Position numbers and translations under genes: made by a program. From positions 28,207 through 92,206 of IMG/VR virus record IMGVR_UViG_3300013308_000020: a stretch of DNA of 64,000 bases. One strand, given 5' to 3'. Positions within the stretch are counted from its first letter, which is position 1, and each line of letters begins with the position of its first letter. The stretch comes from a virus. Taxonomy: Duplodnaviria; Caudoviricetes. A model generated the notes under the pieces. It had not been told where the DNA came from and made no database searches. It saw only the letters and a program-made list of their open reading frames with translations. This document shows positions 17,941 to 48,606 of the stretch, one piece after another.

Positions 17941-19002
17941 ATGGCTCACAATATCAATATAATAAACGGAAAAGCATCTTTCATGTCAGTGAAAGAGAAA
18001 GCATGGCACGGTCTAGGTCAGATACTAGATAAACCTGCTACAGCTCAAGAAGCTATTGAAAGTGCAGGTTTAGACTTTGAAGTTGCTAAGGAACCTGTAT
18101 ATGTTCCTACACGTCAAGTAAATGTTAATGCTGCTCTTGACTTTGAGAACTGTATGAGAATAGGTTCTCCTAATAAACAACCTGGATATTTTGATATGAG
18201 AGTAGTAGAAGATAGATTTGCTACTTATCGTACTGATTCAGGTCATCCTTTTGGTGTTGTAGGTTCTCGTTATGAGATTGTACAAAACCGTGATGCTTTC
18301 TCATTCTTCGATGCAATCGTTGGTGAGGGAGAAGCTATATATGAAACTGCTGGAGCTTTGGGGAATGGAGAAGTAATCTTCATTACTGCAAAGCTTCCTT
18401 CATTTATAAGAGTTGGTGCTAATGACGATATCGAAAAGTATCTATTACTTACTAGCTCACACGATGGATCAGGTTCTATACAAGCCATGTTTACTCCTAT
18501 TAGGGTTGTTTGTAATAATACTCTTAATGCTGCACTTAGAAGCAACGCGGCAAGAGTAACTATCCGTCATACTAAATCAGTTCATGATAACTTGAAAAAG
18601 GCTCATGCTGTTCTCGGTATTACCAATAAGCTTACAGAAGAACTTACAGCTATCTATAATAATATGGCTAAGGTTCGTATTACTGATAAACAGTTGATGG
18701 ACTATATTGAAACTGTAGTTCTAGGAGATACACTAGAACGTATGTTAAACAAAGACGATAAGTTTGATCTATCTACTCGCTCTAGCAATATTATTGGCAA
18801 TATTACTAAGTATGCTTATGAGCATCCTACTCAACAATTAGAAACAACTAAAGGAACTGCATGGGGAGCATATCAAGCAATTACTGGTTACTATTCTAAT
18901 GTGAAGGATTATAAGAATGATGAAGCTAAAATGTCATCTTTGCTTATGGGTTCTACTTATGATATTATGCAGAAATCATTAGTACTTGCAACACAATTCT
19001 AA
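17941..19002 (+). CDS. DUF932 / phage-plasmid-like protein (TIGR03299-type)
   Basis: AWHGLG, YEIVQNRDAFSFFD, YETAGAL, SHDGSGS, TPIRVVCNNTL, RHT, GTAWGAYQAIT. Confidence 0.9.
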   Translation: MAHNINIINGKASFMSVKEKAWHGLGQILDKPATAQEAIESAGLDFEVAKEPVYVPTRQVNVNAALDFENCMRIGSPNKQPGYFDMRVVEDRFATYRTDSGHPFGVVGSRYEIVQNRDAFSFFDAIVGEGEAIYETAGALGNGEVIFITAKLPSFIRVGANDDIEKYLLLTSSHDGSGSIQAMFTPIRVVCNNTLNAALRSNAARVTIRHTKSVHDNLKKAHAVLGITNKLTEELTAIYNNMAKVRITDKQLMDYIETVVLGDTLERMLNKDDKFDLSTRSSNIIGNITKYAYEHPTQQLETTKGTAWGAYQAITGYYSNVKDYKNDEAKMSSLLMGSTYDIMQKSLVLATQF

Positions 19003-24100: not shown

Positions 24101-25441
24101 ATCTTTATCTTTAGGTTTAATTCCTTTCTGATAGGTGTTAATTCCTACAGCTTCAAATATTTCTCCTATCTTTTCTTCTACCCAAGAGTATTCTTCTTCA
24201 TCAATAGCAAAGGATTCTCCTTTCTTACCTGCATAATATCCAGCTAAATCCTTAGCAATCTTCTCACTAGGTTTAATAATATTTTGAATAATAGCATGGA
24301 CAATCTTACCTCTAATTCTCCAGTCAGTATTTTGCTTCATTCGCTTATACTCAACTAGTTCTTTATAGGTCATTGTCTTACCATCTACAGAAATATCTTC
24401 TGCAAATTGTTTCTTAGCTTTTCTATATTCCTCACGTGCAGCATGTTCTTCATAAGATAGATTAGGTTCACCTTTAGGATTATCATTACTATACATCTTA
24501 TGTAAGACTTCTGTACCACGACCAAATTCAAAGTCTTTATTTACATCTGTATAATGAGTTTCATCAGGAGAAAGTTCATATCCTTTTTCTGCAATATGTT
24601 GTTCTACATCTTCAAGAGTAGCTCTTTGCTGTTGAATATCTCTAGATATTTTACCTTTACCTTCACGTAGTTTACCACGTACCATATCCATAGCAAGTTT
24701 CTTTGCTACGTTAGGTTGAATACCTAGTTTCTCTCCGATTGCTCTAAAGACTCTACTTAACCAAAAGTTCCAACGTTTAACAGCTTCGGGATTATCAAAA
24801 AGGTCAGCAGCTTCTACACCAATAGCAGTAGTAAGAATCTCTTTATCTAAAGCTCTTCCGCTTAGGTCAGGATATGTTTCTCTAACTTCATCTGCTAATT
24901 TACTATCTCTTAGTTGGTCTACTCCTTGCTGAATAATAGGGTCATCTCCTAGAATATCAATATAAACGTGTCCATATTCATGAGGTATAGTATCTTTAAA
25001 TACCTTGTTAGGGTTTAGAGTAATAGTTGCACTTCTATCTCCTGTACCTTTAACATTAGCATTCTCACCAAGAGAGTTATCAAACTTCACATTAACATCA
25101 ATACCTGCATCAGCAAAGGTTTTGGTTAATCCTTCCATTTTTCTAGCTGAATCCTCAAGTGTATCTTCTTGGGTTCTCAGCTTATAGCTAGAAGAAAGAG
25201 AAGCATTAAGTGTAGCAAGAGTTGGTTGACCATTCTCATCAAGTTCACCTCTATACTTAGATGGAAAATATTCCCAATCACCATTCTTAGATTTAAAGGC
25301 AGATGTATAGATAAGATTATACATACGTATTGCTTCATTTCTTTTCATCCCCGATAAAAGAAGGTCGGTGAAGAGCTTGCTCTCCACCATTTCACCTTCT
25401 TTATTCTTTATCAGGGGCACTAGATTACAAGTTGCGCCCAT
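21167..25441 (-). CDS. large virion cargo/ejection protein with zincin and PD-(D/E)XK nuclease domains (1424 aa)
   Basis: HEYGH (24968-24982) plus a downstream E; RGKIVH..SEV..IDTL..FDWKTG nuclease motifs; N-terminal FKSKNGDWE..LDENGQP; C-terminal GQLLNQFKKY; directly follows the vRNAP gene. Confidence 0.8.
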   Translation of the reverse strand: MGATCNLVPLIKNKEGEMVESKLFTDLLLSGMKRNEAIRMYNLIYTSAFKSKNGDWEYFPSKYRGELDENGQPTLATLNASLSSSYKLRTQEDTLEDSARKMEGLTKTFADAGIDVNVKFDNSLGENANVKGTGDRSATITLNPNKVFKDTIPHEYGHVYIDILGDDPIIQQGVDQLRDSKLADEVRETYPDLSGRALDKEILTTAIGVEAADLFDNPEAVKRWNFWLSRVFRAIGEKLGIQPNVAKKLAMDMVRGKLREGKGKISRDIQQQRATLEDVEQHIAEKGYELSPDETHYTDVNKDFEFGRGTEVLHKMYSNDNPKGEPNLSYEEHAAREEYRKAKKQFAEDISVDGKTMTYKELVEYKRMKQNTDWRIRGKIVHAIIQNIIKPSEKIAKDLAGYYAGKKGESFAIDEEEYSWVEEKIGEIFEAVGINTYQKGIKPKDKDKVLSEVTIASKLMGIATTIDTLVQDAKGLFSIFDWKTGNLLSDATYANFMKYGRNQIEPILDTKLNKAKLEVVLRAMIFKESMKDKTVRYKDLAIVGISKNNPTQVHEINIEPYLGLIESYYADAANEKLDVYAQLKAQGLFDPTQYIGNNDELVDDRTKNMTVAEKKVFWANELREHTNYIKDLKENKKKSYAEIGAAEAKRLQLVDQVAKVNAELGEDPTTDDISDMGWIKRKIGNMNSIKNPRIKSFIKILTNRQKSGRDRIREIHEHLDELGKKVYTEYFDKHGMKDLLKKATLGGLNALKYQEVFEFMNEYKKDDTHDGYYTRVITQAQVDSGKYSQAQYEYNKYIRETMQKEYKQAVGKISHYRGKHAVTIAEAQGLPAELDPDFMPRYAMTGEEAIERNGRMSKEYKDYFINSVLSDFTANQYKPNDKQKGGLPLKFMGSSNIIKSQNHTLSSEISFKNFISNVIMKDELDDMQSLGDGIVELLKTKTDNEGNEFKNTIEFLQDQILLHVQDTKRNPKWTSRHITFTYEGEKKTVSIDKVLRGIKSWVSWSAMWVKPIPAMFNAGLIVVMNSNKAIVGSIAKRLPGANPEDYDFSIRHLARAQINYADFLFHAMMGQKEKSKLWQLAKHLDYLPDNYDYAIRKSELQFKKNSLLDRSNLYFFHSIGEEYAALTLLGAQAHHYKMGSMSMWDSYDFKDGKFQYVGDRNMKLANGETLTALSAEEIRKFKRVSSLVHGGYRQDERTSLDLTAMGQLLNQFKKYLPNVLESMGQSKYNDDSLGRYELRQNEAGEDVYTWIARINEGRARVLVKWLGATLRLQNDPNYKWSTMPQEQRQRIVELMVAGTFLAGMNVANAVLHGDDDDDDDKMTDWEKMIQRKLLRLADDQSQGIAFWDVLNSVQSQASALPKLYKTSLAMKDILIEGLLKGKRTQKGDIPGWNYLLGQAVPLASSWKDVSRYIDTDLDETTSAH

Positions 25442-25443
25442 AG

Positions 25444-28400
25444 TTATTTACATAATTCGTCTAAGTCTACAATATCAGTTTCACTTAATTCTTCTCGATT
25501 AAAGTTAATAACTTTTCTACCATTATCCAACCCATAAGTTACTTTATCCGCACCTTCTCTATCTTCTAAAATCTTACTACCTCTTGTATAAGTTATACTT
25601 TTAATAGTATAATCAAAAGCATTAAGTCTTTCAGAATCATTCAAAGTCCTTAAAGTAATTGTATCTTCAAGTTCAAAATGATTATATTTAGGATCGCCTG
25701 AATATTCACTTTGGTCATTAGCTTTAGGAACACTACGAGCTTTAACATCTCTTTTAAAGGCATCAGCAAGACTATAACCAAAGAACATAACGTTTTTATC
25801 AAACTCATATCCTTGTTTACTACCTTTCTCTTCCCTAGCAAGATATTGATAATATACATAAGGATCTCCTTCTTTACTTGGTACTCTTACATAGGATTTC
25901 TCATAGTAACTTAGGAAGTCAGGGAAACCATTAATCTTAATCTCCTTAGTTAGTGTTGGGTCATTATCATTAGGTGCAGCAGCATCAGCTACTTGAGTTG
26001 TAGGTTCTCCTTGTTTTTCATCTAAACTAACTGTAGCTTCATCTTTATTATCACCATCAGGTACAGCTTGAGTAGTTTCAGAAGCTTTCTCATACTCATA
26101 CTTTAACTCATAGTTAACTCTTTCACCATTAGGAAGTATATCAAAACCTTGTTCGGGATAAATAGTTCCAGGTTTTTTGACAAACTCTTTATTAGTAGCA
26201 AGTTTACTAGGAAACTGTTTAGCAAATTTAGCTGCAAAGTATTCATTAAGATTCTTAAATCTCTTTTCAACTATCTCAGGCTTTCTAGCTTCTGTAGGAC
26301 TAAGTAAAGTATTAAAGAACTTATTCATTGCTGTATCGAAATCTGCATAGACTTCGGCAGGTAGTAATAAGCTATAAGAACTTAGACCAAAAGATAGACC
26401 TTGATTCAAAGCAGCATATTTAACAAAGTTATGCATAAAAGGAGTAAATTTACCATCAACTTTTAATTCATTAAAAGCTTTTTGTAAATCCTGAATCTCA
26501 GCTTGTTCCATTGCAGCAGTAGTATTATATTCTACTTGATACATGTTCTTGCCTACTCCTAACTGTGGTGCTATTCTTATCTTACTTAAAAACTTATTAG
26601 CAGGATTAGCTTTTTGTGCAGCACGAACTTCTTCAACAAAACTTTGGTTGAAAGCATTAAGACCTACTAAATCTTTAGCTCCTTCTAATGGTATTTGCTC
26701 ATTCTTTTTATTTAAAGCAAATTGTTTAAATGTAGCATTAGAAGTATTAAAGTTAACAGTAATTCCATCAGATACATAAGATAAGCCTGATAAGAACATA
26801 CGCATAATTTCATCACGTATCATTCTCTTATTCTTATTGATATTTGAATCTAATCTAATTCCAGTATGTCTAATTGCTGCTTCAGCAACCTTATTTAGTT
26901 CCTCTCTATGTTTATAGAATTGATTATTAACAATACTACTAACTTTAATTAAAGAATGGTGTGCTTCTTTAATATGAGGTAAAGACATAATATTTATAGT
27001 ACCTAAAAGCCCATCTTTAGCAGCTTTAAGATCATCAAATAAATCTACTAAGTCTTGAATCTCTTCTTGTGCTACTGGAAACTGTTTAAGTATCTTAGTT
27101 GCTTTAGCTACTTGACCTATATCTTCACCATTACTATTACCATTAATAAAATTAGTTAATGCTTTTTGCTGAACTATAAGCTCTTCTATAGTAAGTTTAT
27201 CTATACTAAAATCTTCTTCATTTCCTTTTTTAATTAAATTATCAAGAGCCTCTTCATCAAGTTTAACATTATCTTTAACTGCATCTAATGCTTCAGGAGT
27301 AATATTACCAGCTTTTTCAGCAATAAGTGCATTTAATACTTTTACACTTTCTGATTGAGCAAGTTTCATATTACGAGCATCAGCAAGATTCTTAATTACA
27401 GGAGTAAGAAAATGTTTAGATGTAGCTACAAGCGGCATACCAACAGCAAGCATACCAAAATAAGCTTTGCCAGTATTATTGGTAAGTTTGATAATAGGTA
27501 GAATCTGTTCTTTAACGTTATCGAGAGCAGCATTTATAAGTGCATCAAAAGTATCAGAAACGTTGAAAGGTTTACCATTTTTCTGTTTCTTACCACTCTC
27601 TTTAATAGTTAATTTATTATATACTTTACCATCAAATGCTAGCGTTTTTGTTTCTGAAACATAAGGAGTATCATAAACAATATTAAATTCATCTTCTACT
27701 TCTTTAAAAGCAGCTTCAGCTGTTGCACGGAATTCTTCATAAGTTATTTCACCCTTATTACTTTGTGTAACAGCCTTATTATAAATATCCATTGCTTTAT
27801 TAAAAGCTTCAACCTTTTCAGGAGTTTTGAAACGTTTAATAATTTTTATTCTAGTATCAAAATCAGGTTTATAAGATTGAAGAGTATAAGAAAGACCTCT
27901 AACTAAATCTGCAATAGCACCTACGATAGCAGTACCGCTAAAGTTATCTTGATGTATTTGCATTTGATCAATAGGGTCATTTAAGTCATACTCTTTTTCA
28001 ACAGTTACACCTATTGCTTTTAGTTTACTAAATACAGATTCATTATCTTCCAAATCATTTAAACGATCCATACTAATAGGAGTCATCATACGCTCTTCAT
28101 TTCTTCTAGCTGTAACTACTTCTAAGAATTTATCTACGATTTCATTCTTAATAGCAGAATCTAAAGCACCATCAAGCAAATTAATATACTTATTAATTCT
28201 TCTGATTTCCTCTTTATCATCTTTCTTATCTAGAATTTTCTTTCTTTCTTTAAGGTCTTTAATCTCTTTCTCCATTCTAGGTATAAACTTAGGAATCTTT
28301 TCACCATCAAGTTTTCTACCTATAATAGCACCATGCATAAGCAAATCTTTATAATTAGCTCTTTGTGCATAGTCAGCTTTAGATTCTTTTTCACCTTGTT

Positions 28401-31400
28401 TAGGAAGATATGGAGTTCTTCTCATAATGAAAAGAGCATCTATATCATAGTCACTACCATGAAGAATAGTAAGTTCTCTAGGAGCAATTACAACGTTAGT
28501 TCCTTTACCATCATAGAATCCTACAATCTTAATAGGTAAAGCGGAGTGTAATTCAGTAGAAGGAATACGGAAAGCTAATGCACTTTCAAATAGAATATCT
28601 CCCATTTGAAATTGGTCTTTATAGATATTATCCATAAGTACCTCTGCATACTGAACTTTCTTACCATCAACAGTTGTTTCTGTTCTGATTTTAAGTCTAC
28701 GGCTTGATTTCTCTTTACCGCTTTCATCTATATACTTAATACCAAAGTCAGCTTGTAATGGTAATTTAGTACCATCATACTTAACTTGAACTGTAGCTTT
28801 AGATACAGTAGAAGCAATCTGAGTTACAACTTTATTAACTACAGTAGGAAAGTTAAGAGATAGTAAATAGTTACCATCTTTATCTTTAGCACTCATGAAG
28901 TCATAAAGTCTTGCATCAGTAGCACCTAAAGAATCAAGGAAGAACTTTCTAAGTTTAGAAGCATTACCATTACCTCCACCTAGTTTCTGATTCATTCTAT
29001 TTAAACCTCTTCTAATTAACTTAGCATTCAGTTTAAACAATTCATTAGCAGCTTTACTATTTTTACCGTCAATATCAACAAAATAGGTAATCTGAGTAGG
29101 GTGAGCAGTTTCTCCTTCAAGAGTATGTACTGGATTTAACTGAATTCTCCAATTACTATTATCCAATTCAACTATAGAACGAGGGTCAATACCTTTTTGC
29201 TTTTTACCTTGAGCATCAGTATAAACATTTTCTTCGTTAATACCATGTCCAGTAAGGTTTTCAGGAGCACCAATTTTAAAAGCAGATATGAATACATATT
29301 CATCTACTTTTTTATCATACATTTCTTGACGTAATCTAACTAATTCAGGGAAACGTTCAGAACCATCTTTATTATAAAGAAGTGCATCTGATAGTTCAAT
29401 AGTACTATATTTCATACCTTGTGGTACACCTAATTTATTTAAAGCCCAGTATACTGGTTTCATAATAGCACCTAAAGCCATTTCTTTACCGAAACCTTTT
29501 CTAATGTCAAGACCTCTTTCAGGAGTATGATAACCTTGAGCATCAGCAGCTTCACCTGTTTTACCATAGAAAGCTTGATGTTTTTTGAACTGTTTCTCAG
29601 TAATACCGAACATTATTTTCTTGGCAACAGCAACGGTAAACTTCTCTTTCATGAAGCCTTCATTGTTAACCATTCCACTATAACCCATCGCAAATGCAAT
29701 AGACATACGTTTAATTTGGTCAGCAGGATTTTTATAGAACGCTTGGTCTCCCATTACCAATTGGTTCAGGAAGTGTCCGTTCATATAATTGTTCTTCATC
29801 CATAAGTCCATTAAAGGTAGCAATTGTTCTTTAGTCAATTGATACTCTTTATTCTTTATAGACTGTAAACTTTCAGGTAAAGTATGTTCTTCTAATAATG
29901 CTTTACCATCAGCAGTTTTGTATTTATCATCTATATGAGCAAGAAGTTTATTTTGAGTTTTATGAACATCATAATCTAATACAAACTTAGCATCAATTAG
30001 TTTATCTACTAATCTCTCACTTTTCTTCTCAATAGCTGCAAATACTTTATCTATTTTAGTTTCTAGTAACTTATTGAATTGAGATTCCTTACCTGAAATA
30101 TCCATTGCTTCATATTCCTGAAGGTCTCTTAATTCAGTTATATCAGCTTCAGTTAAACCTGCAAGATAAGACTTATTATAGTTCTTACCATAATTCTGAG
30201 CATCTTGATAAGGTCTCTCAACTTCTTGCATTACTGCTTGATAGATTACGTCCTTAATCTCACTAGACTTTTTAAGGTTTAATTCAGCACTATAAGGGGC
30301 AGGTTTATTTGATATAGTATAAAACTGTTGAATATATCTAAAACCTTTAGATGCTTTAGCATTACCAATTAAAGAAAGAAAAGTATAATTAATATTACGA
30401 TGTAACCATTGCTCAGAAGTCTCATTTTTATATGGAGTAGGTTTGTATTTATTATCCTTTTCCTTTATAGAATCATGGTCTACAAAACTATGAATCTTAT
30501 TATGAGCAGCTTTCTCACGTTTAGTTTTACCGTTACCCATAAGAATGTTTCTACGGAATACAGCAGATTCCATAAAATCCGGTCTATTTTCTACAAAACC
30601 TTTAGTAAGATGAATAAGAGTATCAACACCAAAAGAACTATTTGTCCATTCATAACGTTTCTTACCATCACCTGATATATAAGATACTGGACGTAAATCC
30701 TCACTATCTTTAACAAGTAAATCTGTAAGATTCTCTATACGTTGATTAGAGTCTTTTAAGAATTGATCCCAAGTAAACGTAACCTTTTTCTCAACACCTT
30801 CATTACCATCATCATCAATATCAGTTTTTGTTTCTTCTTTACCTACAGCTTCGACTTGTTGAAATAAGTTTTTAAGAGAAGCATGAATATTAAATTCTTC
30901 ACCTTTAACAATAGTAGGTTTAGGTAAACCTAGATAATGTATTAAGTCCTCAATATTCTTTGTTGTAGCTTCAGTACTATCATCTGCTGTTTCTAAGAAA
31001 CGTTGCTTTAAAGCATCAGGAATAGTTGGTCCTTTAGTCATAAAAGCAGTTTCTACAGCAGCACGCATATTTTGTTTAGCACCTTGTTCACGTACAGAAA
31101 CATAACGATAACTAACACCATAGAATTCTCTTTTTTTCTGACTATCCCATTGGCTAGTAGCTCTAACAGCTATCATCACATTCTTTTTACGTTGTGAACC
31201 AATAGATTGACGTATTTGAGTTAGAACTTCTTTTGCTACTGCACGTTTATATTGAAGATTAAGTCTTTCATTATTAACTACATAACCTTCTTTTTCTAAT
31301 GCAGCTGCAATAGATTTCATGAAAGCAACAGAAGTCATTTTACCTCTTGATACAGATGAAGTTTTATCCATTGCATTCTTAAAGATAAATACATCATCAT

Positions 31401-34400
31401 TTTGGAAATCATAACCTATCTTATCAAAAGTAGGTAAAGGTTTACCATTAGCATCACTATTATCATTAGCTGTAGTTATTAAGTCTACAACTTTATCATA
31501 GATAGCAGCAACTTTACGATTAGATGTTTTAGTAGGACCAAAGTTAAGACCTATTTGTTCTATCATTTTACCTAAGTCTTTGGTAGTTACACCAACAAAA
31601 CCTTCAAGTAATTTGATATAGCCCATACGAGGGTTAACTATATTACCTCCTTCATCTACAATAGTAGCTAAGAAATCTTTAACTCCGCGTTTAACAGCAG
31701 ATTCGTTATCTATTCTATCTGATTCAATAATATCTTCGTAAATACTACCATCAGTTTGAGCATCTTCTATTTCTTGTGCTATTTCTTCATCAGTCTCAGC
31801 AAGATTTTCAGTAAACTCTTTATTACCTAAGTATAAAGTAGGATAGATTTCTCTTAATAAATCTTTAGATTTACGAGGGTCATTAAGAATAGTATAAAGT
31901 TCTTTACTAAAAATATCATCTTCGTCAGGTTGCTCTCCTTCTTCTACAGTTTCAGCTATTGATTCAGTATAAAGGTCTAAATAATATTTAAATTCCTCAC
32001 GTAAATCATTAATAGCTTCTTCAAAAGGCATAGGAGTAGCTTCTTTCATATTAGAGCCGTCCTTATTAAGATTTACTTTCTTTAAAGCTCCTTCTTCATC
32101 ATCCCATTCAGTAGCATTTAATCTATTAGACATACCGCTAGTAACTAAATCTCTAGCTTTTCTGTAATGGTCAGTAGTTAAATAATCTTCACGGATTTTA
32201 ACTAAATTTCTAGTTGCATCTTCTACTACTTCGCCTTCTTTATCAAGTAGACCTGCATCCATAGCATCAAATAGACTCTCAATATTATCGAAGTTAGCTT
32301 TATATAAACCTAACCAGTTTAATATTTTCTTGAATCCGTTTATTAATGCAAGAGATACAACACCTCTTTTAGTAGTCCAGTTCTGATATTGTTCTGCTAA
32401 CCATTCTTCAACACGTACAGGAGTAATATGTTCAAGTGCAGGATTAATACGTCTAGCAGTTTTAATTAATTTTTCTCTTTCTGCTTCAGTTAAATGGTTA
32501 TTAAAGATACGGTGAAAAGCTTCATGTCTAATTACTTTATGATATACACCTTCTGCACCTTCAAGAAGATAAATAATACCTTCTCTGAAATGACCCCAAG
32601 CAGCTCTACCATCAGTAAGTTTAAGCATTACTGCTTCTGATACAACTTTAACATCTTCCTTTCTAATAGAAGGGATAATCTTACGAACTAAATCATAAGG
32701 ATTTTTAACTAAATGTCCTAAAGAAGTACCACGTTCTTTAAGTAATTCTCTTTTATTTCCAAACTTTTGTTTATTCTTAGCTTTTGCAAGATCAGCTTTC
32801 TTTTTTGCTTTAATCTCTGCCGGAGTTAGAACATTCTCATTAACTATAGCTTCTTCTTCTTTAGCCTTTTCAGCTTTATAAGTTTCATCTATTGCAGAGA
32901 TTTCATTTTTAGTATAATCGTAATGGATACTACCTTTAGTATTATCAGTAATATAACGATTATCATCAATTATAGTATCTCCATACTTATGTGCCCTGTC
33001 CATCTTATTCTTATCTGATTGTCCAGTTAGAATTTGAGCTACAGGAATACCTAAAAGATCAGATAGATATTTAACTCTACCTTTACCTGAAGTTACTATA
33101 TGAATATCTCCTTTTTTGATAGAACCATCAGCTAATCTTTTAAGAAGTAGTTTACCTAATTCAGTAAGTTCTACTTTAGCTAACATGTTATCTACTTGCT
33201 CTTCATAGATACCTTTCTCGAAGAAGAAAGCTTGCTTCTTACTAGCAGAACTATGTTCAAAATCTAGTTTCTCAACAGCTTCAGAAGTCTTAATGATAGT
33301 ATCATCTACATCTATAAGTAATTTCTTACCTCTAGGTAGGAATTTATCAAGTTCTTCTTCTTTAACTTCAGCAGCAGATTTAGCTTTAGGTGCAGCAGGT
33401 TTAGGTGCAGCTTGAGTTTCAGCAGGTTTAGTTACCTCTCTTTCTTTTCTAGCTGACGGTCTCTCAATCGAGATTGCTGATGAAGCAACTTCTTCAAAAG
33501 TATCATTAATATAATCAGAAACATTAGCAAGACTAGTACCTTCTGATTCACTATTCTCTTGAAAGTGTTTAATATCTAAAGGAACATGAAGAAGTGAAGA
33601 TTTACCTTCTCCATCAAATTGCATTAACTCTTTTAACTGTTCTAAAGAGAAAGTTTCACCTTGTTCAATTAATAAACCTTTAGCAAAAGATTCAACAGTG
33701 AAACCAATACCGTTACGATTTGGAATCTTTTTGTAAACTCTAATAGGATATCCATTAGGATTAGCATTAGCTTTTGCAATAGCATTAAGAGCAATTTGAG
33801 CAGGTCCAGCTACACGTTTCTCTACAGCAACTCTTTCAAGATTTTCAATAGGAACAATCATAATTGTACCATCAGAAGCTTTCACTTGTGCAGATGTTAC
33901 TTTATTGTCCTTTTCAATAAGTTTAACTACTCTTGCATTACCATCAAACATTTTATTGTCTGATGTATCTTTTACATGGTGATTTTGTTTAATGTCTTTA
34001 GAATCTTTGAAACGTTCTAATTCTTTACTATATACAAGGTCATGTAATTTATCTCTTGCATCTAAGAAATCATTAAAGTTTTCAGTAGTTACTTTAGGTA
34101 ATACACTACCTATTATTTTAAGTAAATATTCATCGTCAGCTTTAATGATTTCACTATATTGAGGAGTACCAAATTCTATACCCTCCATAAAATAATCCAT
34201 CTCTTCAATAGCAGCTATTAACTTCTTAATAGGTCTAGTATATTTAGAGTGTTTATTTTCATCAAGGAAAGCAGGAGTTAAACGGATAAACTGTTGCTTA
34301 CTAAATTTAGCAGAACGAGTAAGATTATCAAGTACAAGATAAGGCACACCTGCTTGAGGAGTAAAAGGAATTTCCTTACCCTTATCTTTATAACTTTGAA

Positions 34401-37400
34401 CTAATTCCCCAACTCCGTTTGTAGTATAAATACGAACTTTACTATTTTCACTTATTTTATTAATATCTGGATTTTCTCCATTAGTAAAGAAACCTTTAAC
34501 AAATCTACTAATAGTATTGAGAACATCATAAGGTTTAGGTGCACCATATTTATAAGCAAGTTTTTGAGTATGAGCAATCCTACCTGAAGTAATAGGATTT
34601 AATACTGAAACTTTAAGTATACCTTTACTCTTATCTTCTGTAGTAAATGCACTTGAAGGATAAGTATCTCCTAAATCATCATTAAGAGCATCTTGTAATA
34701 AGATATATAGTTCATCTTGGTCTTTAACTCCTTTTGCAAGTTCCTTCTTAGATACTATACCTACTTCATGATATCTTCCTCTTTGACCTTCAATAGGAGC
34801 TAAGATAGCAATGTAATATTCACCACTAGAAGTTTTAGCTTTTACATAATGAACTTCATCTCCAGGTTTAACTCCAGGACCATAACTACCATCTTTGTTT
34901 TTTCTTGCTACGGATGCACCTGTAGGATAGCCAATAGTATAAATATCTGTTCCTTGAGTAACTCCTAGAGGAGCAGCAGTTACTTGACCATTACCCTCTT
35001 TCTCATTCATACCATCCTGATTATCAGGATTGTATTCAACTTCTACGTGATCTTCTTCTGATTTAAAATCGTCTTGAACTGCTTGTTCATCTTCAAGTGG
35101 TTCATCTATAGCAGGATCGGCAGTAGTAGCATTTTGTGCATGATATATACTAATAATATCATTTATCTCTTTGGATTTACTTCCAAAGATAGCTTGCTCT
35201 CTATCAGTTAATTTCTCATTATTGATAATCTTATCAGCAATACGATTTAATATTTCTTGAGAAACATTATCATTATCTACAAATTCTGCATAATCGGCAT
35301 CTGATATATCATCTGCAACAGTAGTAGCTTTCTCAGTATCAGGAGTTTTAGCTTCTTTAGGAGGTAAAAGATTATCCATTTTAATCAATTCTGCTTTGCG
35401 CTGTGCAATAAATTTAGCAGAACGGTCTTTATTTTGTTTCTCTTTTTCTTCCTTATTACTCTCAATAGTATCAGATAACTGATTATCTACATTGAAACCA
35501 CCAATATAAATGTAATCTGTTGCTCTAGAAGTAGCAGTATACATTGCTGTATTATACTCTTGTACACTTCTATACTCATTGGTAAAAGGGATATTAGTAT
35601 ATACCTCATTAATAGTTCTACCTTGAGCATCAGTATCAGTCATTACCTGAACATTGTCGATACCTGCTGCTTTCAACATAGCTTCATACTTAGCTACATC
35701 AGCATCATTACCAACAATAATAGCACGAGTACGACTTCTATCATCCTTACGGGCTAATAGAGTAGCCATTACATCTTTATCAAAATCTCTAAGACTTCCG
35801 TTCACTCCCAATAATGGAATGGAGCTAGAAAGAGTAGAGGGATTCAGTGTATTAGCTTTAGTACTAATCGTACTCTTAGTTAAGTCTTGATCTTGGTCTA
35901 TAAATAAATCCTGAACATCTACAATAGCTGCAATATCAGAACGGAATCTAATAGTTAATGGACTAATAGATGTCATGTTTTCTGAACCTACTAATTCAGT
36001 AGGACTCTCAAGCATAGACTTAACTTTATTAGCAACCTTTTGATTCGGGTCTCCCATAAAAAGAAGTTTTACTTTCTCTTTGCGACCTTTATTCAAAGTT
36101 TGTAATGCAGTACTAATTGCTCTAAGATTTGCACTAGTAACACCAGGAGCTTCATCAAGTATAATAAACTTGATGTTAGAATCCATAGTAGGTAAATCAG
36201 CAATAAGTTTATCTACTGAATTAATAGCACTCTTGTTTAAGCTGGAACTAAGAGTTTCAGCTGAATGTACATTATGACCTGCTAAATAATACTGATTGGT
36301 TTTAAGACCTAACATCTTAATAACCCAACGTATAGTTACATTAGTTTTACCAGTACCTGCAAATCCTTTAATATACGCAATATCTTCAAATAACTTACCG
36401 CTAGTTTTACCTTGTACAAATCTAACAATTTGACGCATTGCTACCCATTGCTGATTAGAAGGAGTAGGAGTCTTTCTATTCTTATCAGCAGCTAATTCTT
36501 CTTCGTGCTTTTGTTCAGCTACAGTTTCAGTATGTAAATCAAAATTAGAATCAAGAGAAGCTTCTAAATCAAATAGCGAAGCATATTGCTCATGAAGTTT
36601 AACTACAGCTAATATCTCTTCTTTAGTTACAGAACTAGTACTTCTATCTTCATTATTAAGGTCGTTAATAAATTCAGCTACATCTCCTTCTTTAAAGAAT
36701 TTGTATATAGAACTAGTTTTTTGATTATCATAAGCATCAGGACCAAGACCATCTTTAATACCATTAATAAGGTCTTTGACCATTCTAAATGGACTAAGCT
36801 GATACATATTAAATACCTTACCTCTCTTAGCAAAAGCTTTTTGTATATTAGGTAAGGCAAGCATTTTTCTCATTACAGCTTTCTTAGAATCAGCTATAGC
36901 TTCATCTATACGAGTACGATCTGTAACGTTATCCTTTAAAGTTTGAATAAGGATATTAGCATGAACAAGAGTAAGTTTGCCTTTGGCATCAGCCATTACT
37001 CTATTATAATCGGCATCACCGATAATAGATTTAGAAATTGCATTTAACTCTTCTTTGCCTTCAACAACAGTTCCATCAGGATTTAATCCTAATTGATTAA
37101 GAGCAAGAACTGCTTCATTATCAACAATCCGATTGTCTCTAGCATCTCTATCTTCTAAACGTTTTGTTACTTCTGTTTCTATATTTTCAAGAGTCTCTAT
37201 GTGTTTATCCATAGTATCTTCAAAATCTTGAAATGCTTCTGAAGCTTTCATCTCAGGAGCAACTCTATCTTCATAGATTTTCTTGAGATGTTTAGCTCTC
37301 TTTACTTCTCTCTTTACAGAAGCAATATCATTATAATGAGGATTCTTATTAAACTTATCTTGGATATACTCAGAACCTTTTAAGAAAGTATTTTTGATTC

Positions 37401-40035
37401 TACGTTTAATAGTATTATCATCTGCTTCAGGAATCTCTTCTTGAAGTTTCTCACGATTAGCTTTAAATGCTTCTTTCTGTGTTGCAAATCTAGTATAATC
37501 TTCTCCTCTAAGTCTAGCAAGTCTTGCAACTTGATCAGCATCAGGTTCTTCACCCATAGCTTCATCTGTAGCAATACTCTCTTCGATTTCATCTGCTTCT
37601 GCTTTAATATCAGATATATGTTCTTCCTTACTAGCAATAGCCTCGTCAATCATACGAGTTGCTTCTTTGCCAAGTTTAGGATTTTCAGCATTTATCTCTT
37701 CAAGAATATCATCTACATTCTCACCTGAATCTATACGAGAACGAATATTCTTTTCAAAAGCTTCACGCTCAACTTTATTCAGTTTGTATTTAAGACGTTC
37801 AGTAGCAAGTTGTTGTTTCTCATGTGCTTCATATTGAGGAACAGTACCTTCATCTAAATTAAATGCTTTTACAGGAGCAATTTTTTTCTTAGCTGCTTGT
37901 TCTCTTTCATATTCACGGTTTAAAAAGTCTTTAGCACCTTGTCTAGTATGAAGATCAAGTAATTGATTATGTAAATCTTCTCTAACTAATGAAGCATTAG
38001 TACGTTTCTCTTCAACAGCAGTTAACTTCTGAATATGCTCAAGATTCTTTTTAACTTTATCTTCAGTAATATTATTATTCTCTAAAGTCTCTTTATATTC
38101 ATTAAGAGTTTTTGCATACTTCTCTTCAAGAACTTTTTCATAAGCCTTGATATTAGAAGGTTTTTGTTCTTCAGGAATAGCATGATACTTATCTAGAGTG
38201 CTACGCATAGCATCTAGAGCAGCACGTTTAGTTAATGCTTGATTAAGTTGAGGATTAGCAATTAAAGTTGTTAATGCCTCATGCTCTTTTAAATAATTCT
38301 CAGCATCTAAGTTATTAGTTACATCTATATTCTCTAATCTAGAAGTTAGATGTTGTGCTCTATTAAATACAGCAGCTACATGTTCATCTCTTAATAAAGG
38401 ATTATTGTCATAGATTTTATCATATAACTCTTTTCCTTTTTTAGCTTTAGCCAATTCTCTTTGAGCCATTGCAGACCTTTCAGGGTCTTTAGCACTAGTT
38501 TGAGCAACATTATCTAATGCTTCAAAAAGAAAATTCTCTCTACCTTTAGAAAAGTATTTTGTATAGAGATTAGCTCTATACATAGCCTTTTCATCATTCA
38601 ACTGGGCTTCTGTCATTTTACTAACATCTTGCCTAGTATTATAAGCTGTATATTCATCCCCAGCTACTTTCATTACACCACCTGCACCGGACATTAAACC
38701 GCCTAAGATGAAGCCACTACGAGCAGCATTACGATAGTTAGCATCTTCTTCGTATCCTGCTTCTGTTTTACCAGTAGTAGCATATTCAATAGACTGTTTT
38801 CTATGACCTAAACTTTCTTTAAAGTTATCATAGAAAGAGTTATCATCTTTATATTTACCTGCAAGATATTGTTGAGTAACTGAGAACTGGTCAGTCTCTT
38901 CCATTTGCTCTAATAGAGCAGTAAGACCTACGCCACCCATAGTTTTAGCAGCACGACCAATACGAGTACCAGTACCTAATTCTTCAAATGCAGTTAACGC
39001 TTTACCTACTTTACCAAATACAGAAGCAGCTTTACCTGCTTTAGCAATACTGGAAAGAGTTCTCCACGGAGTTGCCATTACAAGAACTTCGGCAGCATCA
39101 GAAAGACTAAGGTTATTATTTTGTTCTACTACATCTTTAAGACCTTCGTGAGCCTTAATCTGAATATCAAGTTTCTCTTGTTCAGATATAGGATTACCTC
39201 CATTCTTTTCTGTTGCTACTGCAATATCTTGTTGAACCTTTTGCTCATAAGCATCATTAGCTTCAGCTTGAGATTCATTCTGTCTCATTTGGTAAATACC
39301 ATATAGACCCGCAGCAGTTTCAGTAGCACCAAGACCTGCCATAACCCAAGGTAATTCAGGAATATCTGCACCACCTGTAGCAGCTACAGAAGTTAAAGTT
39401 TTCTGAACAATCTTATTAATTATCTGAGGACCAAATGTAGTAAGCATTTGAGTACCAATTTCAGAAGCAGAACCACCTAATTCTTTAGGCATTTCATATT
39501 TCATATAATCATGGAAGTTAGTATTTTCTTCCATCATAGCTTGCTCTGATTTTATCTCATAACGTTTAGTTACAGGACGTGCAGCAATATCAGTATCTTT
39601 TTCAGCTATATCTTTATGAATAGCATTATATTCAGGATCTTCTTGAATATTATTTAATTCATCTTGCTGCATTTGAATCTTTCTATCAGCTTCTTCTTGA
39701 GTCATATAGCCTTTAGCTACCTTATCTTGAAGTGCTAGAATTTCTCTTTTTGCAGTTTGTTGTCGAAGCTCAAAAGGTTTTAGTCTATAACCGTAAGTAG
39801 ATTTCTTAATTTCATCAATACCATTAACAAAAGAATTCCATCTATCATCTTCTCCTGCACCAGACTCTTCCATCATTTCAGGAGCATCTGTTTTATGAGG
39901 ATCAGAATAACCTTGACCTCCATAAGTAGCAGCTGATTCAGTAAGTGCTTCTATCATTCTAGTACCTGAACTAGGGGAAGTTGTTTCCCCTAGTCCTGTT
40001 GTACCTGCTTGCTTTAAAATATCTAGCCCTCTCAT
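25444..40035 (-). CDS. giant virion-packaged two-barrel RNA polymerase with SF1 helicase, HAD and zincin domains (4863 aa)
   Basis: GSDYDID (DYDID at 28438-28452; crAss-type DxDID catalytic loop) preceded by FRIP, DAQG, KPVY and SAFKIG; GFAGTGKT/DEA/GDPNQ/YTATSRA; DVDDT; HEAFH. Confidence 0.9.
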   Translation of the reverse strand: MRGLDILKQAGTTGLGETTSPSSGTRMIEALTESAATYGGQGYSDPHKTDAPEMMEESGAGEDDRWNSFVNGIDEIKKSTYGYRLKPFELRQQTAKREILALQDKVAKGYMTQEEADRKIQMQQDELNNIQEDPEYNAIHKDIAEKDTDIAARPVTKRYEIKSEQAMMEENTNFHDYMKYEMPKELGGSASEIGTQMLTTFGPQIINKIVQKTLTSVAATGGADIPELPWVMAGLGATETAAGLYGIYQMRQNESQAEANDAYEQKVQQDIAVATEKNGGNPISEQEKLDIQIKAHEGLKDVVEQNNNLSLSDAAEVLVMATPWRTLSSIAKAGKAASVFGKVGKALTAFEELGTGTRIGRAAKTMGGVGLTALLEQMEETDQFSVTQQYLAGKYKDDNSFYDNFKESLGHRKQSIEYATTGKTEAGYEEDANYRNAARSGFILGGLMSGAGGVMKVAGDEYTAYNTRQDVSKMTEAQLNDEKAMYRANLYTKYFSKGRENFLFEALDNVAQTSAKDPERSAMAQRELAKAKKGKELYDKIYDNNPLLRDEHVAAVFNRAQHLTSRLENIDVTNNLDAENYLKEHEALTTLIANPQLNQALTKRAALDAMRSTLDKYHAIPEEQKPSNIKAYEKVLEEKYAKTLNEYKETLENNNITEDKVKKNLEHIQKLTAVEEKRTNASLVREDLHNQLLDLHTRQGAKDFLNREYEREQAAKKKIAPVKAFNLDEGTVPQYEAHEKQQLATERLKYKLNKVEREAFEKNIRSRIDSGENVDDILEEINAENPKLGKEATRMIDEAIASKEEHISDIKAEADEIEESIATDEAMGEEPDADQVARLARLRGEDYTRFATQKEAFKANREKLQEEIPEADDNTIKRRIKNTFLKGSEYIQDKFNKNPHYNDIASVKREVKRAKHLKKIYEDRVAPEMKASEAFQDFEDTMDKHIETLENIETEVTKRLEDRDARDNRIVDNEAVLALNQLGLNPDGTVVEGKEELNAISKSIIGDADYNRVMADAKGKLTLVHANILIQTLKDNVTDRTRIDEAIADSKKAVMRKMLALPNIQKAFAKRGKVFNMYQLSPFRMVKDLINGIKDGLGPDAYDNQKTSSIYKFFKEGDVAEFINDLNNEDRSTSSVTKEEILAVVKLHEQYASLFDLEASLDSNFDLHTETVAEQKHEEELAADKNRKTPTPSNQQWVAMRQIVRFVQGKTSGKLFEDIAYIKGFAGTGKTNVTIRWVIKMLGLKTNQYYLAGHNVHSAETLSSSLNKSAINSVDKLIADLPTMDSNIKFIILDEAPGVTSANLRAISTALQTLNKGRKEKVKLLFMGDPNQKVANKVKSMLESPTELVGSENMTSISPLTIRFRSDIAAIVDVQDLFIDQDQDLTKSTISTKANTLNPSTLSSSIPLLGVNGSLRDFDKDVMATLLARKDDRSRTRAIIVGNDADVAKYEAMLKAAGIDNVQVMTDTDAQGRTINEVYTNIPFTNEYRSVQEYNTAMYTATSRATDYIYIGGFNVDNQLSDTIESNKEEKEKQNKDRSAKFIAQRKAELIKMDNLLPPKEAKTPDTEKATTVADDISDADYAEFVDNDNVSQEILNRIADKIINNEKLTDREQAIFGSKSKEINDIISIYHAQNATTADPAIDEPLEDEQAVQDDFKSEEDHVEVEYNPDNQDGMNEKEGNGQVTAAPLGVTQGTDIYTIGYPTGASVARKNKDGSYGPGVKPGDEVHYVKAKTSSGEYYIAILAPIEGQRGRYHEVGIVSKKELAKGVKDQDELYILLQDALNDDLGDTYPSSAFTTEDKSKGILKVSVLNPITSGRIAHTQKLAYKYGAPKPYDVLNTISRFVKGFFTNGENPDINKISENSKVRIYTTNGVGELVQSYKDKGKEIPFTPQAGVPYLVLDNLTRSAKFSKQQFIRLTPAFLDENKHSKYTRPIKKLIAAIEEMDYFMEGIEFGTPQYSEIIKADDEYLLKIIGSVLPKVTTENFNDFLDARDKLHDLVYSKELERFKDSKDIKQNHHVKDTSDNKMFDGNARVVKLIEKDNKVTSAQVKASDGTIMIVPIENLERVAVEKRVAGPAQIALNAIAKANANPNGYPIRVYKKIPNRNGIGFTVESFAKGLLIEQGETFSLEQLKELMQFDGEGKSSLLHVPLDIKHFQENSESEGTSLANVSDYINDTFEEVASSAISIERPSARKEREVTKPAETQAAPKPAAPKAKSAAEVKEEELDKFLPRGKKLLIDVDDTIIKTSEAVEKLDFEHSSASKKQAFFFEKGIYEEQVDNMLAKVELTELGKLLLKRLADGSIKKGDIHIVTSGKGRVKYLSDLLGIPVAQILTGQSDKNKMDRAHKYGDTIIDDNRYITDNTKGSIHYDYTKNEISAIDETYKAEKAKEEEAIVNENVLTPAEIKAKKKADLAKAKNKQKFGNKRELLKERGTSLGHLVKNPYDLVRKIIPSIRKEDVKVVSEAVMLKLTDGRAAWGHFREGIIYLLEGAEGVYHKVIRHEAFHRIFNNHLTEAEREKLIKTARRINPALEHITPVRVEEWLAEQYQNWTTKRGVVSLALINGFKKILNWLGLYKANFDNIESLFDAMDAGLLDKEGEVVEDATRNLVKIREDYLTTDHYRKARDLVTSGMSNRLNATEWDDEEGALKKVNLNKDGSNMKEATPMPFEEAINDLREEFKYYLDLYTESIAETVEEGEQPDEDDIFSKELYTILNDPRKSKDLLREIYPTLYLGNKEFTENLAETDEEIAQEIEDAQTDGSIYEDIIESDRIDNESAVKRGVKDFLATIVDEGGNIVNPRMGYIKLLEGFVGVTTKDLGKMIEQIGLNFGPTKTSNRKVAAIYDKVVDLITTANDNSDANGKPLPTFDKIGYDFQNDDVFIFKNAMDKTSSVSRGKMTSVAFMKSIAAALEKEGYVVNNERLNLQYKRAVAKEVLTQIRQSIGSQRKKNVMIAVRATSQWDSQKKREFYGVSYRYVSVREQGAKQNMRAAVETAFMTKGPTIPDALKQRFLETADDSTEATTKNIEDLIHYLGLPKPTIVKGEEFNIHASLKNLFQQVEAVGKEETKTDIDDDGNEGVEKKVTFTWDQFLKDSNQRIENLTDLLVKDSEDLRPVSYISGDGKKRYEWTNSSFGVDTLIHLTKGFVENRPDFMESAVFRRNILMGNGKTKREKAAHNKIHSFVDHDSIKEKDNKYKPTPYKNETSEQWLHRNINYTFLSLIGNAKASKGFRYIQQFYTISNKPAPYSAELNLKKSSEIKDVIYQAVMQEVERPYQDAQNYGKNYNKSYLAGLTEADITELRDLQEYEAMDISGKESQFNKLLETKIDKVFAAIEKKSERLVDKLIDAKFVLDYDVHKTQNKLLAHIDDKYKTADGKALLEEHTLPESLQSIKNKEYQLTKEQLLPLMDLWMKNNYMNGHFLNQLVMGDQAFYKNPADQIKRMSIAFAMGYSGMVNNEGFMKEKFTVAVAKKIMFGITEKQFKKHQAFYGKTGEAADAQGYHTPERGLDIRKGFGKEMALGAIMKPVYWALNKLGVPQGMKYSTIELSDALLYNKDGSERFPELVRLRQEMYDKKVDEYVFISAFKIGAPENLTGHGINEENVYTDAQGKKQKGIDPRSIVELDNSNWRIQLNPVHTLEGETAHPTQITYFVDIDGKNSKAANELFKLNAKLIRRGLNRMNQKLGGGNGNASKLRKFFLDSLGATDARLYDFMSAKDKDGNYLLSLNFPTVVNKVVTQIASTVSKATVQVKYDGTKLPLQADFGIKYIDESGKEKSSRRLKIRTETTVDGKKVQYAEVLMDNIYKDQFQMGDILFESALAFRIPSTELHSALPIKIVGFYDGKGTNVVIAPRELTILHGSDYDIDALFIMRRTPYLPKQGEKESKADYAQRANYKDLLMHGAIIGRKLDGEKIPKFIPRMEKEIKDLKERKKILDKKDDKEEIRRINKYINLLDGALDSAIKNEIVDKFLEVVTARRNEERMMTPISMDRLNDLEDNESVFSKLKAIGVTVEKEYDLNDPIDQMQIHQDNFSGTAIVGAIADLVRGLSYTLQSYKPDFDTRIKIIKRFKTPEKVEAFNKAMDIYNKAVTQSNKGEITYEEFRATAEAAFKEVEDEFNIVYDTPYVSETKTLAFDGKVYNKLTIKESGKKQKNGKPFNVSDTFDALINAALDNVKEQILPIIKLTNNTGKAYFGMLAVGMPLVATSKHFLTPVIKNLADARNMKLAQSESVKVLNALIAEKAGNITPEALDAVKDNVKLDEEALDNLIKKGNEEDFSIDKLTIEELIVQQKALTNFINGNSNGEDIGQVAKATKILKQFPVAQEEIQDLVDLFDDLKAAKDGLLGTINIMSLPHIKEAHHSLIKVSSIVNNQFYKHREELNKVAEAAIRHTGIRLDSNINKNKRMIRDEIMRMFLSGLSYVSDGITVNFNTSNATFKQFALNKKNEQIPLEGAKDLVGLNAFNQSFVEEVRAAQKANPANKFLSKIRIAPQLGVGKNMYQVEYNTTAAMEQAEIQDLQKAFNELKVDGKFTPFMHNFVKYAALNQGLSFGLSSYSLLLPAEVYADFDTAMNKFFNTLLSPTEARKPEIVEKRFKNLNEYFAAKFAKQFPSKLATNKEFVKKPGTIYPEQGFDILPNGERVNYELKYEYEKASETTQAVPDGDNKDEATVSLDEKQGEPTTQVADAAAPNDNDPTLTKEIKINGFPDFLSYYEKSYVRVPSKEGDPYVYYQYLAREEKGSKQGYEFDKNVMFFGYSLADAFKRDVKARSVPKANDQSEYSGDPKYNHFELEDTITLRTLNDSERLNAFDYTIKSITYTRGSKILEDREGADKVTYGLDNGRKVINFNREELSETDIVDLDELCK

Positions 40036-42236
40036 ACGTTATTCTCTTGTAGGTATAAAATGAATGCTTCTCTTTCTCTATCAGTCATAGAACTAAATCT
40101 ATCTACTTCTTTGATTTTTTCTTTTGCTGTATTTAATCTAGGAGTAAGGTCATTTTGTATATATAACTGTCTTTCTTTTTCGTCCTTAACTTTTGTGTTA
40201 AGTTCGTCCATATAATCTTTTACTTGTTTATCTAATTGCTTCTGTAATAAAACCTTAGTACGTTCTCTAAAAGGAACTTGTTTCGATTTAGGATTAGTAG
40301 GGTCTACAGGTACGGGAGCATTACCAATTAAACCTTTCATTTTATAACCTAGATTAGCCATATTACGTTGGTTTTCTGCATTTTGAGTTACATACTCAGC
40401 ATGATTTGCAGCAACATCAGTAGTACCCATTTTCTTCTTATCAAAATCTTCTGCAATAGTAGCAGATTCAGGTATCTTAGATACGAAGTTAACGTTATAA
40501 TATTTATTTTCTTCAATCTTATCATCAGGACCTAAACCAGTAATTAGATTATGAGTTTTAGCCCATTCCAAATCAGAAGCTGACATATCAGATAACTCAG
40601 TACCTTTCATTTTAGTAGTGAACTCTCCATACTTTTTACCGTTTACACGATAAGTATTTGTAGGATTTTTCATGTTAACATTGGCATCAACTACTTTACC
40701 ATTGAACTTTTTACCTATTGCTTCATAAGCTTTAAGATTATCTCCTTCAAAAGCAGTTTTATATTTTGCTGCAATATTAGCATGTTCAGCAGGTAGTTTC
40801 TTTAATTCTGCTTGAGCCTTTTCTAAATCTTTTTCGAGTAAAAATTTCTTTCTTTCTTTATCTTCACCGAATGTACCTTGCGCTATATCAACAGCTTTAC
40901 CTATAACTGGGAATGCAGTACCAAGTGTTTTTGATATTGCAGAAGGTTCTTCTAAATTTAAGAGTTTCTCTTTAATAGTATTAACATCACTTTCTTTCTT
41001 ATAGTATTCTTTAGCTATCTTAACTTGTTCTTCATTAAATCCTGCAGCTTCAGGAACAAAAGTACTACCCATTGTACCTATTTCCATAGGAACTCTCATA
41101 GCATCATATTTATTCTTAGTTTCAGGATCTTCTACAGTTACTTTAGGGAAGTGTATACCTGAGAAAGTTTCATCATTACTAACAGTACCATAGTTACCAT
41201 TCTCATCTGTTAGACTTGCAGCTCTATCCCATAATGCATGAGGAGCTAAAGCAACTGCTTCTTTCTTAGCTATTTTCTCTGCTTTCTCTTTAACAGTAGC
41301 AGCTTTAGCTAATTTCTTATCCTCTTCTATAGCATCTGCTGCAATTTTTTGTCTTTGAAGTTCAAGAGCTTGTCTATGATTAATAGCATCTCTTTGTAAA
41401 TCAAACGCTTGTTGATCTTCTCTATTCTCACGTTGTACAGCAGGAGCATTAACTTGATAGTTAACATCTTCTTTTGTAAATGTTTGTGCTTTACCTACGT
41501 TAAACAAATAATTAGAAATATAATCATCTGCTTCACCTTCACCCATACCTTTAATCTTAGTAAGTTTGCGTTTCATTTGGTCGCCCTCCGGACTATTCAT
41601 AAAACGCATAATAGAACCTTCTAAGTTATCTTTAACTCTTTGGTCAGATATACCAGTGATAGAACCACTTTGTAAGAAGTCTCTGATATTAGCAGGAGTT
41701 AAACCTAAATTTCTAGTACTAGCTATAAGTTTACTTACCTCTTGTGCTCTAGTATCGTAGTCTAATTCTTTCTCATTTTGAGCAACAAATCTTCTAGCTT
41801 TACCATCTGCTCCAACAGTTTTCCAACCTTCAGCAGGATTAAAGTCAAGAACACTATGACCGGCAGCTTGCATAGCTTGTCTAGTTTTCTCAGCTTCTTT
41901 AATAGCAGTCATATTCTCTTTAGCCATATTTAAATTTTGGTCAGCAGACCAATCTCTAACAGCTAACCCTATACGTGGAGTAGCATAAGCATAATCACCA
42001 CTAGATGCAATAGCATCTCTTTGTTGTTTAAGTCTACCTAATGCTGCATCCTTAATATCTCTATCACCATCTGCGACTTGAGTATTATTAGCCATAATAT
42101 CTAAAGCAGACATAGCGGCATAATTTTCATCATGCCGCTTCTGAACTGCTCCGAGACTATTAGCCAATATATCGAGCTTAGGGTCGACATACATCGACAT
42201 AGGCTCATTATATATTTGTTGACCGAAGTATCCCAT
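40032..42236 (-). CDS. virion cargo/ejection protein (734 aa, helical)
   Basis: Lies between the 1670-aa cargo gene and the vRNAP gene with ATGA coupling; coiled-coil-rich. Confidence 0.65.
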   Translation of the reverse strand: MGYFGQQIYNEPMSMYVDPKLDILANSLGAVQKRHDENYAAMSALDIMANNTQVADGDRDIKDAALGRLKQQRDAIASSGDYAYATPRIGLAVRDWSADQNLNMAKENMTAIKEAEKTRQAMQAAGHSVLDFNPAEGWKTVGADGKARRFVAQNEKELDYDTRAQEVSKLIASTRNLGLTPANIRDFLQSGSITGISDQRVKDNLEGSIMRFMNSPEGDQMKRKLTKIKGMGEGEADDYISNYLFNVGKAQTFTKEDVNYQVNAPAVQRENREDQQAFDLQRDAINHRQALELQRQKIAADAIEEDKKLAKAATVKEKAEKIAKKEAVALAPHALWDRAASLTDENGNYGTVSNDETFSGIHFPKVTVEDPETKNKYDAMRVPMEIGTMGSTFVPEAAGFNEEQVKIAKEYYKKESDVNTIKEKLLNLEEPSAISKTLGTAFPVIGKAVDIAQGTFGEDKERKKFLLEKDLEKAQAELKKLPAEHANIAAKYKTAFEGDNLKAYEAIGKKFNGKVVDANVNMKNPTNTYRVNGKKYGEFTTKMKGTELSDMSASDLEWAKTHNLITGLGPDDKIEENKYYNVNFVSKIPESATIAEDFDKKKMGTTDVAANHAEYVTQNAENQRNMANLGYKMKGLIGNAPVPVDPTNPKSKQVPFRERTKVLLQKQLDKQVKDYMDELNTKVKDEKERQLYIQNDLTPRLNTAKEKIKEVDRFSSMTDREREAFILYLQENNV

Positions 42237-42243
42237 CTTTTAT

Positions 42244-48605: not shown

Positions 48606-48606
48606 A

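Follow-up and report, generated by a model that had tools for sequence, protein, structure and literature searches.

The minus-strand open reading frame at positions 25444–40035 probably encodes a fused "transcription block" cargo protein of a divergent crAss-like phage, in which a zincin would cut or activate the chain and a helicase would open duplex DNA for a virion RNA polymerase. The window, i.e., the whole stretch of DNA that was analysed, comprises 64,000 nucleotides (positions 28,207 to 92,206) of the IMG/VR record IMGVR_UViG_3300013308_000020; the source record is 92,206 bp long and carries a terminal repeat.

The frame runs without a stop through 4863 codons and gives a protein of 4863 aa (P0001). 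The initial annotation had reported one uninterrupted frame of this length together with its motif positions, and the recomputed coordinates agreed exactly in every case. The closest relative, P0002 (4791 aa), comes from other samples and is collinear with P0001 from residue 1 to the end, at 59–67% identity. As independent relatives are collinear over the full length, an assembly or frameshift artefact was ruled out. The start codon overlaps the stop codon of the upstream gene, and the downstream gene begins 2 bases past the stop codon of the giant frame. The features of the locus are the following:

40032–51930, minus strand: upstream operon genes (734, 1670, 463 and 1107 aa) whose order follows that of the muzzle and cargo genes in relatives
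25444–40035, minus strand: the whole open reading frame P0001, 4863 aa, a predicted cargo module fused to a virion RNA polymerase
38419–39573, minus strand: N-terminal conserved region rich in Gly and hydrophobic residues, residues 155–539
35326–36588, minus strand: predicted SF1 (RecD/Dda/Pif1-like) helicase, residues 1150–1570
36343–36366, minus strand: GFAGTGKT, residues 1224–1231
Residue 1290, minus strand: FIILDEA, helicase motif
Residue 1327, minus strand: MGDPNQ, helicase motif
Residue 1469, minus strand: DAQG, helicase motif
35521–35541, minus strand: YTATSRA, helicase motif, residues 1499–1505
33388–35040, minus strand: conserved region between the helicase and the linker, residues 1666–2216, with BLASTP blocks shared with P0004, P0005, P0006 and P0007
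32851–33357, minus strand: probable HAD-like insert, residues 2227–2395, with a four-motif core at 2239–2358
Residue 2241, minus strand: IDVDDT, HAD-like motif
32311–32715, minus strand: predicted zincin-like metallopeptidase, residues 2441–2575, with HEAFH at 2504 and EE at 2543–2544
32512–32526, minus strand: HEAFH, residues 2504–2508, the sole HExxH of the giant protein
Residue 2542, minus strand: VEEWLAE, downstream of HEAFH
27250–30132, minus strand: predicted two-barrel virion RNA polymerase core, residues 3302–4262
28438–28452, minus strand: DYDID, polymerase motif, residues 3862–3866
25450–25452, minus strand: the only Cys of the giant protein, residue 4862 of 4863
21167–25441, minus strand: downstream gene, 1424 aa, the counterpart of phi14:2 gp65 by position and weak sequence similarity, with HEYGH at residue 154

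The major capsid protein, portal and TerL of this genome match PHROG families, and its TerL is 39–41% identical to those of Suoliviridae (order Crassvirales). The plus-strand half encodes SNF2-like and DnaB-like helicases, a primase, a ligase and a PD-(D/E)xK nuclease. The ATP-dependent DNA ligase (10600–11826, plus strand; E 4e-19) and a strong DUF932 protein (17941–19002, plus strand; E 5.5e-62) lie in the replication block, and a 232-aa protein (14304–15002, plus strand) matches the Pfam family Tad4, a type I Thoeris inhibitor (E 7.8e-33, 113.6 bits). The nuclease gene (12049–13095, plus strand; DUF3799, PDDEXK_1) was recognised by hmmscan. A RecB-like nuclease in the giant frame or in the 1424-aa gene was looked for and not found: the genome-wide search gave no PDDEXK_1 match and the 1424-aa protein had no Pfam match; that search, made with PF12705, was insensitive, because it missed the plus-strand PDDEXK gene later matched by hmmscan.

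Searches with the giant protein as a whole were negative: PHROGs, phmmer against PDB, megablast of the reading frame against phages and a pattern search of viral contigs all gave no match. The tblastn search with residues 1–2399 against phages likewise gave none and missed cr118_1, although a pairwise BLASTP comparison later matched it.

Residues 1150–1570 are a predicted SF1 helicase with intact catalytic motifs. When compared alone with Pfam, this segment scored above the cut-offs of three families, AAA_30 (29.9 bits, cut-off 27), Viral_helicase1 (25.7, cut-off 21) and SLFN-g3_helicase (27.2, cut-off 24), with a weak match to UvrD_C_2 (16 bits); in the scan of the whole protein the helicase matches fell slightly below the cut-off (AAA_30, 25.4). 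Walker A, Walker B and motifs III–VI are present in order, and RecD and Pif1 are among the PDB matches of the helicase profile. Moreover, six relatives with 22–72% identity all retain GxGK (Walker A), DE (Walker B), both the D and the Q of GDxxQ, the QG and YxAxSRA motifs and Arg216, which is the motif IV arginine in the first-sequence numbering of alignment A1. The SF1/RecD-like call made in the initial annotation was therefore confirmed by three Pfam families and by invariant catalytic motifs. The genome has no other helicase of this kind, and the one described here is not the replicative helicase, because the DnaB-like and SNF2-like genes are located in the plus-strand replication block.

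The assignment of residues 2441–2575 to a zincin-like domain holds, as the motif, the predicted fold and the profile agree. RHExFHxIF and a downstream EExxA are invariant across relatives; in an alignment of 16 sequences H280, E281, H284, E319 and E320 (alignment numbering) do not vary, and neither does the F of HExFH. HExxH is retained in 158 of 159 related proteins. The AF2 model built from these 16 sequences has a block-mean pLDDT of 81–95 over most of residues 2441–2575, and both HExxH and the later EE motif are placed on helices. Ten of the top 11 VIA matches are zincin-fold domains, with middling Z-scores: anthrax lethal factor (Z 8.4, rmsd 3.6, 126 aligned), Certhrax (7.7), PPEP-2 (7.0), PprI (6.8) and SPRTN (6.3). 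Foldseek with this second model returned nothing at E < 0.001, with small zincins clustered among the weak rows, and an earlier model from seven sequences (mean pLDDT 55.8) was uninformative in both Foldseek and VIA. The zincin profile matched selecase (4QHJ), a minimal gluzincin, in PDB (E 0.002); the zincin residues matched no curated family in Pfam or NCBIfam. The zincin proposed initially from its motif thus gained a confident model whose best structural matches are zincin metallopeptidases.

The C-terminal half contains, as predicted from sequence, a crAss-type two-barrel virion RNA polymerase of the gp66 family (residues 3302–4262). A profile of the core built from seven sequences has a sole match in PDB, the phi14:2 gp66 structure 6VR4 (E 2.5e-38, gp66 residues 850–1677), and the pairwise comparison with gp66 gave E 2e-15. 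Using tblastn, the C-terminal half matched phi14:2 gp66 as well as further crAss polymerases, with identities of about 24%. The aspartates of DYDID (D561, D563 and D565 in alignment numbering) are invariant in seven relatives. The two-barrel polymerase with DYDID described initially is borne out. The protein shares with the gp66 family the homologous core, DxDxD and the position in the cargo block with a gp65-like gene next to it.

The HAD domain of the initial annotation is plausible. Motifs I–IV (LLIDVDDTI, IVTSG, K and IIDD) are present in order within residues 2239–2358, and a profile or fold match was not obtained. Pfam gave only DUF6648, below the cut-off (E 0.005, 17 bits), phmmer against PDB and NCBIfam gave no match, the AF2 model has a pLDDT mostly below 60, and the comparison with the crAss polynucleotide kinase/phosphatase gave E 0.66. 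The four-motif pattern, which was written after viewing the sequence, occurred in none of 3000 shuffles of the giant protein, and canonical motif I occurs once in the 637,921 residues of the protein set. Residues 2227–2395 fill exactly the gap between two alignment blocks with the closest relative. No homologue of the insert was found among 158 relatives, and a homologue search with it returned none of similar length. In our view it is probably a HAD-like insert that is specific to this lineage.

Two further regions are conserved. The N-terminal region (residues 155–539), which might have a role in envelope passage, aligns with residues 194–639 of cr118_1 gp14 at 25% identity (pairwise E 7e-20). 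The region between the helicase and the linker (residues 1666–2216) matched no Pfam family. The upstream genes are ordered as in the contigs L002, L006 and L020 of relatives, in which the proteins at the place of the 1107-aa gene (1102, 1375 and 1777 aa, respectively) match crAss_MUZ, the Pfam family of the crAss muzzle protein.

The giant protein has one Cys in 4863 residues, compared with 0.65% in the reading frames of the genome. The 1424-aa protein also has a single Cys, at residue 5 (25427–25429), and Cys is missing altogether from the upstream cargo proteins of 1670 and 734 aa. This near-absence of Cys fits passage through the tail and the envelope. Facing chain ends keep Cys in split relatives as well as in gp67, gp66 and gp65 of phi14:2 (loci L003, L020 and L001). 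Among three fully fused relatives that were checked, P0006 and P0008 have no Cys, whereas in the third there are four, all of them internal.

A profile of the zincin region matched 1067 cluster representatives at E ≤ 1e-3 and 486 at E ≤ 1e-10. Domain classes were scored with local profiles on 159 proteins, covering the best 150 of the 1067 matches. Helicase, zincin and D[FYW]DxD occur in one chain of 4000–7300 aa in 85 of the 159; 33 have zincin and polymerase only, 12 helicase and zincin only, and 29 a zincin match without helicase or DxDxD (158–4460 aa, in many cases short fragments). In all 97 chains with both domains the helicase comes first, preceding the zincin by 536–1217 residues, and in all 24 relatives longer than 5,500 aa a gp65-like protein is fused at the C-terminus. 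In L003, which is split before the zincin, a 2851-aa helicase protein (AAA_19, 40 bits) is followed by a 2937-aa zincin-polymerase; in L020, split after the zincin, a 2859-aa helicase-zincin protein is followed by a 2369-aa polymerase. Gene boundaries thus occur naturally on both sides of the zincin. The uncultured relatives P0002–P0159, metagenomic giants of 4000–7300 aa, share the three-domain order in the 85 chains and differ from P0001 in that none has the HAD-like insert, while all 24 longer than 5,500 aa are also fused to the gp65-like protein and others are split before or after the zincin. The giant protein is typical of its clade, which is large and mostly uncultured; as an instance it is ordinary there, and the putative HAD-like insert is its one peculiar feature. 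The architecture had at first been taken as unusual, which is not supported in view of these 85 chains and of cr118_1, which fuses all three domains in another order; the ground for refutation named in the initial annotation, a routine occurrence of the architecture in described Crassvirales, largely applies.

The cr118_1 phage (Besingivirus coli, Suoliviridae) encodes gp14, a protein of 4946 aa annotated as "exonuclease V", with a HEAFH zincin at residue 1734, DFDID at 3209 and a helicase at 4436–4924 belonging to the same SF1 family (profile E 1.4e-11 and 3.3e-8). It resembles P0001 as a giant chain with the same zincin type, the same helicase family and a homologous N-terminal region. However, its helicase is C-terminal, past the polymerase, it has no HAD-like insert, and the TerL proteins are only about 41% identical. 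Among ten described Crassvirales genomes tested, the helicase is missing from nine, while the zincin profile matches eight. The block proteins of three Steigviridae, phi14:2, cr111_1 and Kehishuvirus 'tikkala', gave no helicase match with all filters off, and six further genomes gave none in a less sensitive search. Because these Steigviridae have no helicase in the block, the polymerase family works without one.

In Kehishuvirus 'tikkala' (L010, crAss001-like; 22457–29389), the same zincin type is placed C-terminally in a "RNA-polymerase subunit" of 2310 aa, with HEAFH at residue 2157, and the gene of this subunit is convergent to the polymerase gene; the split thus falls after the zincin here as well. 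The zincin-profile matches in six Suoliviridae (NC_055898.1, NC_055900.1, NC_055901.1, NC_055894.1, NC_055891.1 and NC_055888.1) contain one or two in-frame TAG codons, as expected if TAG encodes an amino acid there.

The gp67-gp66-gp65 block of phi14:2 is similar to the present locus in its homologous polymerase core, in DxDxD, in the position after the tail and cargo genes, in the neighbouring gp65-like HExxH protein (1424 aa here, 1421 aa in phi14:2) and in the terminal-Cys pattern common to both. It differs in that gp67 and gp66 are encoded separately, the former without a helicase and the latter without HExxH. The phi14:2 gp66 has 2180 aa, compared with the 4863 aa found here, where a helicase, a zincin before the polymerase and the HAD-like insert are added. 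According to Drobysheva et al. (bioRxiv 10.1101/2020.03.07.982082), the three block proteins are present in virions, in some phages they are fused as a polyprotein that is probably cleaved, and the zincin-like domain may activate the polymerase. A 2023 review (PMC10136315) names polymerases reaching about 6000 aa as a hallmark of the crAss group and has the cargo proteins ejected ahead of or with the DNA. Giant fused polymerases, and a zincin with a possible role in their processing or activation, are already published, and the helicase module is undiscussed in the literature searched. No discussion of an SF1 helicase in the crAss transcription block was found there; the coverage of that literature is incomplete, and earlier figures may mark one.

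A wider likeness is to the N4 virion RNA polymerase and the polyvalent proteins described by Iyer et al. (2017, PMC5512222), in which very large virion-delivered polymerases are combined with a zincin and other enzymes, and zincin hubs in injected proteins of phages and plasmids join unrelated enzymes. The zincin found here resembles anthrax lethal factor, as reported there for the zincins of polyvalent proteins. However, the N4 polymerase is T7-like and single-subunit, whereas the present one has two barrels, and no mention of an SF1 helicase was found in that paper, in which the term "SF1" has no occurrences.

The locus corresponds to the phi14:2 block, which consists of the three genes gp67, gp66 and gp65, with the gp67 and gp66 positions joined in one chain. 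The SF1 helicase, its motifs intact, lies in the gp67-position module, followed by the zincin-like domain and the gp66-type polymerase, and the gp65-like protein remains a separate gene. By analogy with the family, the protein would travel inside the capsid, leave it unfolded along with the DNA and transcribe the early genes. The zincin, located at a natural module boundary, would cut or activate the chain after entry, and the helicase, held beside the polymerase, would unwind the incoming duplex. The HAD-like domain would be a recent lineage-specific addition to the linker, outside the core machine. Duplex opening is proposed for the helicase because purified gp66, which is autoinhibited, is published to transcribe single-stranded and hardly double-stranded DNA in vitro; the helicase may thus supply the single-stranded template preferred by the polymerase. 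The initial annotation had suggested that the helicase pulls DNA in or feeds template, which is a reasonable proposal. We only tentatively extend this to the fuller suggestion that crAss-type virion RNA polymerases find their missing partner for template opening in the SF1 helicase, which a large uncultured clade would tether to the polymerase covalently or end to end via the terminal Cys, with the junction zincin releasing and activating the parts.

In the main rival reading, the helicase would be an optional accessory, injected in the style of polyvalent proteins and directed against host or defence targets (protein clearing, anti-restriction) rather than serving the polymerase. The absence of the helicase from nine of the ten described genomes, including the Steigviridae checked, is in line with this, and its position past the polymerase in cr118_1 makes it look like a movable accessory. 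The same linker region also accepts unrelated inserts, such as the HAD-like domain, and the joining of unrelated enzymes around a zincin hub is known from polyvalent proteins (PMC5512222). However, the order is fixed and the catalytic motifs are intact in 97 of 97 two-domain chains of the clade, and the helicase adjoins the polymerase gene even in the split forms; we consider the accessory role somewhat unlikely. Alternatively, the helicase could act as a translocase and draw the genome into the cell, with template opening being incidental. Genome entry driven by a polymerase, as in T7, would be a comparable process. The translocase role was proposed initially and would suit an enzyme located in a cargo protein whose ejection precedes or accompanies that of the DNA (PMC10136315), but relatives without the helicase must still internalise their genomes, and the sequence does not separate translocation from template opening; we consider it highly improbable as the main function.

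For the zincin, the alternative is that the HExxH domain does not process its own chain and either digests cell-wall or host proteins or is a structural remnant. Peptidoglycan digestion has been raised for the block zincin by Drobysheva et al. (bioRxiv 10.1101/2020.03.07.982082), and non-catalytic domains of the lethal-factor-like type are among the best structural matches. Nevertheless, the invariance of HExxH and EExxA over very divergent sequences favours catalysis, and the gene boundaries of split relatives flank the domain on either side; this alternative appears unlikely. We retain the fused block with a cutting or activating zincin and a duplex-opening helicase as the preferred reading.

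The three natural split points around the zincin suggest where processing of the chain may occur. If the tentative template-opening suggestion is true, the entering duplex would be unwound straight into an enzyme able to start on single strands only. For the question of how the crAss virion polymerase gains access to its template in the cell, a conserved and apparently active predicted helicase, kept on the same chain throughout a large clade, is a concrete candidate.
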